NCBI GenBank assembly: GCA_050124795.1
Contig: JASFEO010000020.1
Span: 1-14,749, forward strand
Length of the DNA stretch: 14,749 bases
Reading direction: 5' to 3'
Origin: Candidatus Pacearchaeota archaeon
GTDB lineage: Archaea; Nanobdellota; Nanobdellia; Pacearchaeales; GW2011-AR1
Position 1 is the first letter of the stretch, and every line of letters begins with the position of its first letter. The notes under the pieces were generated by a model that saw nothing but the letters and a program-made list of their open reading frames with translations, was not told the DNA's origin and searched no databases. This document shows, in pieces, positions 2,711 through 3,760 of the stretch. Position numbers and translations under genes: made by a program.

Positions 2711-3385
2711 TTAGAAAAAATCCATTGAATTCTTATGAGCCATCAATAAAGCCATTTCATATGTTTTTGGGATGCCCGCTTGTTTTTGTTTTTGAATAAT
2801 TTCTTTGACATCATTTAAATTGCTTATTTTTATCTTCGTACTATCTATAAAATGACTTGTAAAAAACATGCCAAGCCTGACATAACTTAATCTGCTTGAT
2901 GGATCCCATTCAATTTCCATTTCATTGCTCTTCGGTATTTTACGAATATGTTCTTCATAAACTTTATTTCTTTCACTTTGGGATAAAAGAACTTTCTCCC
3001 AGTTTTCTTCTCCGGGATTTTTCCCCATTGCAATTTCTTCAACTATTTTTCTGTTTACAACATCGATTGGTTTGTCTCTAAGAAGATTTTCCAAAAGTGA
3101 ATGACCTAAATCAACATAGCTTCCTGTTGAACCAGGATTCCAAATAACCCTGATTCTTTTTGCTTCGTAAATTTCTCTTGCATGATCTCTGCAAATTCGA
3201 TAGCCGCCTATTGGGTCTTCCTGATTCGTGTCATCTGCAGGGTATAAAATCTGTGCCCCGTCTTTTCTTGCATCACTTAAATATCTTTCAATTTCCTCTT
3301 TCTCTCTCTTAGGAGCTTTTCTTACAGAACAAATAAGATAATCATAATCTCCGGGATATTTTCTTACATATTCAGGCAATTTCAT
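2711..3385 (-). CDS. Nucleoside 2-deoxyribosyltransferase (NDT)-like fold protein with internal duplication, 224 aa
   Basis: YLICSVR...ILYP.DDTNQ...RIC...W.P.STGSYVDLG...KPI resembles the NDT/Rcl-like flavodoxin-fold pattern (family call is inference). TATA CTTTAAAA (3407-3414, minus) starts 29 nt upstream. Confidence 0.6.
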   Translation of the reverse strand: MKLPEYVRKYPGDYDYLICSVRKAPKREKEEIERYLSDARKDGAQILYPADDTNQEDPIGGYRICRDHAREIYEAKRIRVIWNPGSTGSYVDLGHSLLENLLRDKPIDVVNRKIVEEIAMGKNPGEENWEKVLLSQSERNKVYEEHIRKIPKSNEMEIEWDPSSRLSYVRLGMFFTSHFIDSTKIKISNLNDVKEIIQKQKQAGIPKTYEMALLMAHKNSMDFF

Positions 3386-3486
3386 AATCCAAAAATAGAT
3401 TTTTATTTTTAAAGATTTATATTCAGGACTATAACTTTTTCAAGAACAAAATAAAATTTTCTGAATCTGAAAAATCTATGAATAAG

Positions 3487-3596
3487 GCTGCCAACTCCCG
3501 ACCCCGCACAAAGTTTTTGTGCCGGCGATACTTTTACCACGAAGTCACTCAGGATTTGAGTTTAATCGTTCCTGTGTTAAGCAAACACATAACAGC
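3487..3596 (-). ncRNA. Putative structured ncRNA (~110 nt), family unassigned
   Basis: GC-rich island in an AT-rich intergenic region. The minus strand folds with a closing stem GCUGUUA/UGGCAGC and five internal helices. Several G-U pairs would be A-C mismatches on the plus strand, supporting the minus strand. Confidence 0.65.
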
Positions 3597-3632
3597 ATAA
3601 ATGAATATTCAATTTTGTAAAATATTTTTGAA

Positions 3633-3707
3633 TGAGGCTGCTAGGATTTGAACCTAGGACCCCTGCCTTATCAGAGCAGTGCTCTGGCCAGACTGAGCTA
3701 CAGCCTC
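3633..3707 (-). tRNA. tRNA-Ile (anticodon GAT), 75 nt, no intron, CCA not encoded
   Basis: Cloverleaf GAGGCTG TA GCTC AGTCTGGCCA GAGC A CTGCT CT-GAT-AA GGCAG GGGTC CTAGG TTCAAAT CCTAG CAGCCTC A. TATA CTTATAAA at 3732-3739 (minus). Confidence 0.97.
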
Positions 3708-3760
3708 ATAGAAAAATTAGAGAATTATTTGTTTATAAGTTTTGTGACTTAGTAAATTTT

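Follow-up and report, generated by a model that had tools for sequence, protein, structure and literature searches.

A block behind tRNA-Ile in a Pacearchaeota genome is probably one of many tRNA-trailer units built around a structured hairpin repeat that also occurs as a tRNA intron

In a Candidatus Pacearchaeota genome, the block at positions 3487 to 3596 (minus strand) of the window, by which we mean the whole 14,749-nt stretch of DNA analysed, is probably the tRNA-Ile member of a set of tRNA-trailer units built round a selfish hairpin repeat resembling REP, RPE and MITE elements, mobile now or formerly, some copies of which are tRNA introns. The repeat itself, which we call the core, is an undescribed interspersed element of one family of small-genome archaea of the Nanoarchaeota type; our search of the literature outside supplementary files found no description of it. 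The core is about 56 nt long; variants whose tip is longer reach about 80 nt. Its fold is conserved on a single strand. Copies have accumulated within genomes and have inserted cleanly into conserved protein genes, and in tRNA-Gln(CUG), tRNA-Leu(UAA) and tRNA-His the core forms an intron of the anticodon loop.

The genome (G000 below) comprises 1.06 Mb in 38 contigs at ~31% G+C and is 90% complete. The proteins of the window (an aIF5B-like GTPase, an eRF1-family protein, the primase small subunit, and a class I tRNA synthetase) are archaeal.

A sequence-only reading of the window had seen in the block a structured, strand-specific element without a known RNA family, and this description stands: covariation and G-U pairs, given below, bear it out, and there is no Rfam 15 match to the block at the gathering threshold, while over 3400-3750 no model, those for 5S, SRP, and RNase P RNAs included, matched up to an E value of 10 except tRNA. 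Five further loci, holding at least 10 core copies, also gave only tRNA matches in Rfam 15. As judged by eye, the block lacks the defining boxes or cores of a small ribozyme (hammerhead or other), a C/D or H/ACA guide RNA, an internal-loop kink-turn, a split-tRNA half, and a group II intron domain V. A check of the sequence finds every complementary segment named in the earlier reading on the minus strand, each where it had been placed; the block does start ~36 nt behind tRNA-Ile on the same strand (ARAGORN, Rfam); and it is indeed more GC-rich than its flanks, with a GC fraction of 0.41-0.43 in 100-nt windows over 3450-3599 vs 0.24-0.30 in adjoining intergenic windows.

The block is composite, with a spacer module, a 9-nt T-loop copy, one 56-nt core, and a degenerate tRNA 3′ end. 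The parts are listed here in transcript order; R1 is a covariance model built from aligned paralogues (14 copies, alignment A1), and MFE is the minimum free energy fold.

3632-3708, minus strand: intact tRNA-Ile(GAU) (ARAGORN; Rfam tRNA match at 3633-3707, 70.1 bits)
3597-3631, minus strand: AT-rich tRNA trailer/spacer; contains a T4 run and possibly a UUCAA/UUGAA hairpin (sequence)
3590-3596, minus strand: spacer strand GCUGUUA, able to pair with the duplicated acceptor 3′ strand (MFE)
3560-3589, minus strand: hairpin 3573-3589 and semi-conserved spacer module (alignment A3 of 13 spacers; BLAST)
3551-3559, minus strand: T-loop and start of the T-stem 3′ strand, a copy of tRNA-Ile TCAAATCCT, 9/9 identical to 3643-3651
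3495-3550, minus strand: core repeat, 56 nt (R1 match, 73.1 bits; covariation)
3548-3550, minus strand: GAG of the core (covariation)
3540-3547 with 3499-3506, minus strand: P1 of the core (covariation)
3535-3539 and 3507-3509, minus strand: internal loop of the core, UGGUA / GUG (covariation)
3530-3534 with 3510-3514, minus strand: P2 of the core (covariation)
3515-3529, minus strand: variable apical part of the core (covariation)
3495-3498, minus strand: GGAG of the core (covariation)
3470-3491, minus strand: degenerate second tRNA-Ile acceptor 3′ strand and trailer, with a T5 run at 3470-3474; 18/22 identical to 3620-3641

The tRNA-Ile gene at 3632-3708 is the "empty" copy of the insertion target. 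Within it the two pieces at 3643-3651 and 3620-3641 are separated by one base only; their counterparts downstream flank the core, with a gap of three bases between the core and 3470-3491, and the core thereby splits an incomplete duplicate of the tRNA-Ile gene end that comprises T-loop, 3′ end, and trailer. When the window copy is removed in silico, the virtual empty site finds a match 101 nt upstream (score 17 vs a shuffle maximum of 13). The first part of the trailer/spacer 3597-3631 recurs after the second tRNA-end copy; the duplicated stretch thus extends beyond the tRNA end into flanking DNA and is a copy of the gene region rather than of the mature tRNA. The unit is an older one in decay, to judge from the loss of the T-stem, whose 5′ strand is not kept, and from the 4/22 tRNA-end positions that differ; base 72 would form a G-U pair.

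The spacer module at ~3560-3589 has an alignment consensus of roughly GTTnGCTAAACTCAAnAAnnATT (A3, 13 spacers) and is common to tRNA trailers in four other genera; in this genome it also lies behind tRNA-Pro, Leu, Cys, Ser, Lys, and Thr, and nt 13-103 of the block are 72% identical to the tRNA-Cys trailer by BLAST. As the open reading frame beside the block (2711-3385) has no homologue in 36 family genomes, an orthologous empty tRNA-Ile site could not be found. Contigs from one DNA sequencing run, possibly the source, contained only the source contig and pieces of other copies, and no joint across the unit.

Folding predictions for the whole block are moderately better than chance, at -33.4 kcal/mol on the minus strand (z -2.33, 2/200 shuffles as good) and -24.8 kcal/mol on the plus strand (z -1.81, 7/200). 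It is the recurrence of the core that places the feature far beyond chance. The consensus of the 14 aligned copies (56-70 nt) reads, 5′ to 3′, GAG, an 8-bp P1, UGGUA facing GUG, a 5-bp P2, a variable tip, and GGAG or CGAG; the internal loop UGGUA/GUG is invariant, and the ends GAG...GGAG are conserved. The reverse complement of the G000-type consensus, as we read it, is free of stops in every frame. In A1, 95.6% of cells are paired and 9/13 pairs show changes on both sides; 0/500 shuffles reach the observed pairing, slid controls are 30-48% paired, and RNAalifold independently predicts the same P1 and P2. In alignment A2, which holds 64 distinct copies from other genomes and was fitted to the covariance model in a way that favours pairing figures, P1 is 98.8% paired and 12/13 pairs show double changes. 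The P1 cells of A2 include 62 G-U pairs vs at most 6 unpaired cells, so the fold belongs to one strand, whether as RNA or as a single DNA strand.

These alignments also sort out the helices of the sequence-only reading. Its junction stem GACUUC/GGGGUC is P1 and is carried by covariation over the 14 paralogues; its two inner hairpins are the MFE of the window copy only, and the family instead pairs AAAG(U) with (A)CUUU as P2. The MFE of the core alone (3494-3551) reproduces the proposed three-way junction exactly (-16.5, z -1.74, 12/200 shuffles), whereas the MFE of the whole block retains the closing stem (3590-3596 with 3487-3493) and the first two hairpins and loses GACUUC/GGGGUC. The closing stem pairs the spacer strand with the duplicated tRNA 3′ end, and locus-specific support for it is weak: its own duplex scores -10.2 vs a mean of -6.6 with foreign flanks, and over 29 units the means are -8.3 vs -7.4, with 110/5000 permutations equal or better.

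A BLAST search of the block against its own genome adds four copies of nt 46/57-102 (82-88% identity), a profile built from these raises the count to 14 copies, and R1 yields 18 core matches in the 1.06 Mb. Fourteen of the 18 lie behind tRNA genes, arranged as in the window, 1 in an intron of tRNA-Gln(CUG), and 2 in a reverse-transcriptase gene, and 1 is an orphan. The 14 tRNA-linked cores lie 26-175 nt behind a same-strand tRNA gene (eleven of these tRNAs are ARAGORN calls, to which we added Val, a Leu-like gene on contig C11, and Glu(CUC)), and tRNA-Arg(CCU) is followed by a unit with half a core that R1 misses; ~15/35 tRNA genes, about 40%, carry a unit. We searched downstream of all 35 tRNAs for copies of the last 15 nt of the tRNA with up to 3 errors; such a copy follows 9 of the 16 tRNAs that have a core no more than 400 nt away and none of the other 19, the upstream control giving one weak match among all 35. 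Since the duplicates occur only where a core is nearby, we conclude that duplication accompanies the core and did not precede it. In the Lys and Thr units the T-stem round the core is intact. Behind tRNA-Gly(UCC) there is no T run between tRNA and core and one follows the unit, making co-transcription of the two likely at this gene.

Outside this genome the core is widespread within one family and patchy there. R1 finds matches in 27/101 family genomes, this one included, at 1 to 47 each, and none in the other 74; in an order-wide sample it is positive in 20/105 genomes of the family vs 0/45 from eight other families. BLAST of the 110-nt block against 40 relatives found nothing although R1 is positive in other genera, so that the structured core alone is shared. 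A loose pattern scan with one genome per species led to archaeal records titled Woesearchaeota, Pacearchaeota, or Nanoarchaeota; R1 confirmed none of the pattern matches tested from bacteria (5) and viral contigs (3). For 42/55 copies the most similar other core is in their own genome, vs 8.7 expected (0/1000 label shuffles), and the cores must therefore have been multiplied or homogenised after the genera split.

The arrangement of an intact gene followed by an interrupted partial copy recurs behind tRNAs in other genera, often in tandem: G094 has two exact 129-nt units in tandem at tRNA-Leu(UAA), and G078 two units each behind tRNA-Gly(UCC), His, and Ser; in a further record set 13/73 copies lie behind tRNAs. 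It is also found at the 3′ end of a HerA-like gene in five genera, again with tandem units. Joining the flanks in silico recovers a junction-spanning "empty site" 49-370 nt upstream for 10/18 G000 copies and for 17/65 tested elsewhere, and downstream controls are high in tandem arrays only. The upstream target copy remains intact, leaving the tRNA or HerA-like gene undamaged. Unit type and position are common to the same tRNA across genera for Gly(UCC) in G000 and G078, Leu(UAA) in G000 and G094, and Thr(UGU) in G000 and G116, and a core lies directly upstream of an Spt5-type gene in three genera; these recurring copies could be old, retained, and possibly useful.

Cores also lie inside open reading frames, in sense orientation, in frame, and free of stops, in the following genes.

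Topoisomerase IA of G099 (795 residues)
Kinase/RIO-like gene of G042
MnmA-like gene of G176
155-residue ORF of G052
Reverse-transcriptase copy B of G000

These are 5 of 6 in-ORF copies; the sixth, reverse-transcriptase copy A of G000, differs by 2 nt in the CT repeat of the tip and is frameshifted. The one polymorphic insertion dissected at the DNA level, in the G099 topoisomerase, adds 57 nt (19 residues) in frame between conserved codons, is missing from 5/5 orthologues compared, and leaves a target duplication of at most 1 ambiguous nt. A second topoisomerase insertion, in G087 and G082, proved not to be a core. All gene-associated copies are in sense orientation: the five that keep the frame, the frameshifted reverse-transcriptase copy, and every tRNA-linked copy examined. 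In G087, all 17 copies examined fall between genes and show no fixed orientation relative to the adjoining ones (4 sense and 4 antisense among those between co-oriented genes), and only the core is conserved there. The flanks of 141 distinct copies have C at -1 in 114 (G never), G at -3 in 91, and A/T at +2 in 132; their profiles hold nothing conserved further out, no repeat, and no conserved target tetranucleotide. One record (L131) has four head-to-tail cores, the first three identical and 58 nt apart.

As an intron, the core is found at the canonical position in at least five tRNA genes from at least five records. The 63-nt intron of tRNA-Gln(CUG) in G000 (C3:77486-77621), called by ARAGORN with introns allowed, consists of the core and a few bases, and the Rfam tRNA model spans the gene across the insert at 47.9 bits. 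tRNA-Gln(CUG) of two other records has a core intron as well (ARAGORN assigns a wrong anticodon to one of the two), as does a tRNA-Leu(UAA), and a tRNA-His has a divergent one. Removing the core from tRNA-Gln, Leu, and His restores the cloverleaf; the window copy is not inside tRNA exons. The exons keep the cloverleaf even though their stem sequences differ between genomes, from which we infer that the introns are removed in vivo. The intron form is ...G37 | YC-GAG...GGGAG-A(N) | A38, and the repeat unit, with the C at -1 and two A/T-rich bases after the core, has the same limits as the tRNA-Gln intron. By hand, the GGAG tail can be paired with CUCU in the anticodon loop of tRNA-Gln so that a 3′ bulge of 3 nt remains; the MFE of the intron-bearing arms contains this pairing in 1/3 tRNA-Gln genes and no textbook bulge-helix-bulge (BHB, two 3-nt bulges on either side of a 4-bp helix) in 2/3. 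A complementary 4-mer suited to the central helix of a BHB is found in the 10 nt before 39/141 copies vs 18-29/141 in control windows, a weak enrichment, and most copies are probably not framed by a splicing motif. One gene encodes the splicing endonuclease; across five genomes its open frame measures ~130-180 residues (~176 in G000). A 2026 preprint treats the arrival route of Asgard tRNA introns as still open.

We picture the spread of the core as follows. The hairpin may be recognised, as ssDNA or RNA, by an enzyme of the host or of the element, and insertions would survive i) where nothing is broken, as between genes; ii) where the reading frame stays open; iii) where the splicing endonuclease removes the insert from an anticodon loop; or iv) where an intact target copy accompanies the interrupted one. 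In anticodon loops, the core would have become, or begun as, an intron. The intact-plus-interrupted arrangement could stem from a Campbell-type or unequal crossover between an interrupted and an uninterrupted copy, a single crossover between a core-bearing regional copy and the chromosome taking place on the 3′ side of the core; repeated events of this kind, or unequal crossing-over, would generate tandem units.

REP/RAYT and IS200/IS605-derived elements have a single imperfect one-strand hairpin, make no target duplication, spread between genes, and form tandem arrays. The core is likewise a one-strand imperfect hairpin found between genes and in tandem, with no target duplication; it differs from them in favouring only C at -1 and G at -3, and in showing no association with a Y1 (HUH) transposase, which is present in 8/27 element-positive vs 26/74 element-negative genomes. 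"Intron transposition" between tRNA genes is known in Thermoproteales, and the core is like archaeal BHB tRNA introns in that some copies are anticodon-loop introns, related introns sitting in different tRNAs; unlike them, most cores, the window copy included, lie outside tRNA exons. Eukaryotic Introner elements are DNA transposons that create spliceosomal introns. The likeness to these is that one repeat family makes up both genome-wide insertions and introns removed by the host splicing machinery; the differences are those of domain, splicing system, and size, and the archaeal core is plausibly spliced in anticodon-loop copies only, copies within open reading frames appearing to be translated.

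With its 56-80 nt and 1-47 matches per genome, the core is small, multicopy, and non-coding, as MITEs are; a target duplication of fixed length was found neither in the topoisomerase (at most 1 nt) nor as a repeat in the flank profiles, the only inverted repeat of the core is its own P1 stem, and the loci read contain no longer, gene-bearing copy. As it makes no target duplication and, its own stem apart, lacks terminal inverted repeats, the core is not a textbook MITE. RPEs are described, in passages of one review (PMC10969869), as short hairpin repeats that lie between genes and in frame inside housekeeping genes, with no known transposase; the core too is a hairpin, multicopy in a small genome, intergenic and also in frame inside unrelated genes, and without a known transposase. 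The resemblance is one of description and not of sequence, RPEs being bacterial and ~150 bp long and the archaeal core being 56-80 nt with an invariant asymmetric internal loop, and the core further departs from what those passages (PMC10969869) say of RPEs by occurring as tRNA introns and in duplicated gene ends. An intact tRNA gene followed by a displaced partial 3′ copy also recalls the attL/attR pairs left by integrating elements, here extended to the 3′ end of a protein gene; the core units differ in having only ~50-280 nt between copies, no integrase gene there, and a second copy split by the core, and in that G000 duplicates are seen solely where a core is nearby. An earlier paper (PMC3293823) proposes a model in which a mobile element disrupts tRNA genes. 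Several observations count against a selfish repeat: neither Y1 nor reverse transcriptase turned up as a mobilising partner, units behind the same tRNAs and cores before the Spt5-type gene recur across genera, units on ~15/35 tRNA genes are many for junk, and a pure DNA transposon does not predict that gene-associated copies are all sense, although the reverse complement of the G000-type consensus is, as noted, free of stops.

The uniform orientation would be accommodated if the mobile form were RNA. RNA cut from a pre-tRNA by the splicing endonuclease (YC-GAG...GGGAG-NN, linear or circularised) would then re-enter transcripts or DNA and be fixed via reverse transcription and recombination, the trailer units acting as transcribed launch pads. 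We regard this as unlikely, for all that it draws on the canonical-position introns in at least five genes and records, the match of the repeat unit (C at -1 in 114/141 copies, two A/T-rich bases after) to the tRNA-Gln intron limits, the strand-specific fold, the head-to-tail array of L131 with its 58-nt spacing, and a duplicated segment that reaches the T run and is 5′-truncated, as a reverse-transcribed primary transcript would be; BHB motifs are where archaeal tRNA introns are cut out and made circular, according to one paper (PMC12558985). Reverse-transcriptase genes occur in 40/101 family genomes, but with no association: they are found in 12/27 element-positive vs 28/74 element-negative genomes, a weak comparison given genomes 61-92% complete, and in G078 (29 matches, 84% complete) and G059 (17 matches, 77% complete) neither a reverse transcriptase nor Y1 was detected. 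The intergenic copies of G087 in mixed orientation, the 4-mer at only 39/141 copies, and the tRNA-Gln genes whose MFE lacks a textbook BHB likewise tell against an RNA route. Its fullest form would be an archaeal "introner", in which one family supplies canonical tRNA introns as well as mobile repeats all over the genome, and the moving form is the endonuclease-released RNA, ligated or circularised, copied to DNA, and recombined in behind the gene it came from; such a route would account for the sense orientation, the unit of intron size, gene ends duplicated as far as the terminator, and the head-to-tail arrays, and we give it a small but real chance of being right.

That the core instead serves the host, as a protein-binding or processing signal kept by selection in trailers and untranslated regions (for 3′ maturation, termination, or stability, for example) and spread by duplication, seems to us improbable. 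The loop and ends invariant over genera, the compensatory changes in both stems, the same unit type behind the same tRNA in different genera, the core before an Spt5-type gene in three of them, the share of G000 tRNA genes with a unit, and the likely co-transcription at tRNA-Gly(UCC) are all what such a module would lead one to expect, but 74/101 family genomes do without it and the rest have anywhere from 1 to 47, copies sit inside conserved protein genes, the intergenic copies of G087 face both ways, and the window unit is decaying. We consider it very improbable that the core is a T-loop intron and that the downstream partial copy supplies a real or alternative tRNA-Ile 3′ end through a broad-specificity endonuclease. 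DPANN alpha4-type endonucleases with an L3 loop are indeed reported to go with more disrupted tRNA genes (PMC5829648), and the T-stem round the core is intact in the Lys and Thr units; against this, the upstream tRNA-Ile is complete at 70.1 bits, the window T-stem 5′ strand is not preserved and base 72 gives G-U, the G000 endonuclease is a single gene of ~176 residues, and the signal for a general BHB at cores is weak. Finally, the two proposals of the sequence-only reading, a divergent 5S rRNA or a single novel ~110-nt stable RNA gene, may be dismissed despite the size, GC content, and multi-helix fold of the block and its lack of an Rfam match: the 5S model (RF00001) finds a canonical 5S rRNA elsewhere in the genome (C7:6173-6287, 62.3 bits, above the cut-off) and nothing in the block up to E 10, the two halves of the block, 5′ and 3′, each have homologues of their own, and the core is multicopy, with 18 matches in the genome.

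How archaeal tRNA introns are gained is a long-standing question. A selfish hairpin repeat, which we continue to think the probable reading, bears on it in that one covariance-model family is found in four settings: introns of anticodon loops, fresh in-frame insertions into housekeeping genes, repeats between genes, and duplicated tRNA ends; "mobile repeat becomes intron", or the reverse, can thereby be tested directly in a lineage for which hundreds of public genomes exist. For annotation the units carry a warning, as they look like new small RNAs, pseudo-tRNAs, or peptides inserted into conserved proteins. The core is also a new structured motif, with an invariant UGGUA/GUG loop and GA...GA ends, whose binding partner is worth finding. 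If the archaeal "introner" were true, it would be the first concrete route for the arrival and spread of archaeal tRNA introns.

The reverse-transcriptase gene (RVT_1) is present twice on contig C2 of G000, the source genome of the window (C2:336-498 and C2:818-1533; C2:37837-38550). Each copy holds a core, the structured hairpin repeat, with a (CT)n microsatellite within the core tip that differs by one unit between the two copies; copy B is missing its N-terminal part, and an Rfam RT-16 RNA motif match (94.8 bits) precedes one of the two. When the family was scanned with RVT_1, many reverse transcriptases gave two adjacent matches per gene, broken near profile position 105-110, which is the site of the core in the G000 reverse transcriptase, as in these examples:

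G072:C3:27391-28046, split RVT_1 match
G109:C6:29991-30633, split RVT_1 match

In some of these split genes there is no space for an insert between the two matches, so the split may result from a frameshift, or the gene may consist of two ORFs.

Cores also lie before a Spt5-type gene in three genera, sense-oriented and separated from the start codon by 12-30 nt; the assignment was confirmed by Pfam Spt5-NGN in L037, and made by similar N-terminal sequence in L041 and L026:

L037:1501-1570, sense, core before Spt5-type gene
L041:1501-1570, sense, core before Spt5-type gene
L026:1501-1590, sense, core before Spt5-type gene

The topoisomerase orthologues of G087 (L100) and G082 (L101), genomes of the same family, each have a second insertion site, where an additional stretch of some 25-45 residues is present; R1, the covariance model of the core, found no match in it.

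Locus L131 holds four cores in a head-to-tail array (1237-1481), the first three identical, spaced at 58 nt and joined by TA, the fourth distinct and with a longer tip. At four G087 loci (L052, L053, L056, and L057), a second inverted-repeat motif, of the type AAGTAGTG ... CACTACTT, recurs 60-120 nt upstream of several cores, and short GAGCAA and TCGTCGA motifs are also recurrent nearby; together these may represent another repeat family.

In the unit behind tRNA-Arg(CCU) of G000 (C7:7191-7280; L009:191-280), the core is represented by its 5′ half only, joined to the T-loop copy via the AAUCC of the core tip; in one subfamily of cores the tip reads AUAAUCC and resembles a T-loop.

Elsewhere in G000, tRNA-Glu(CUC) (C3:78517-78700) contains an intron of 109 nt that has no relation to the core, and the tRNA at C4:64615-64724, which has an odd-looking 5′ half, drew conflicting ARAGORN calls, Thr(UGU) without an intron versus Ser(UGA) with one. 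The genome, although 90% complete, yielded only 29 to 35 tRNA genes, so it probably contains more tRNA genes that are disrupted.
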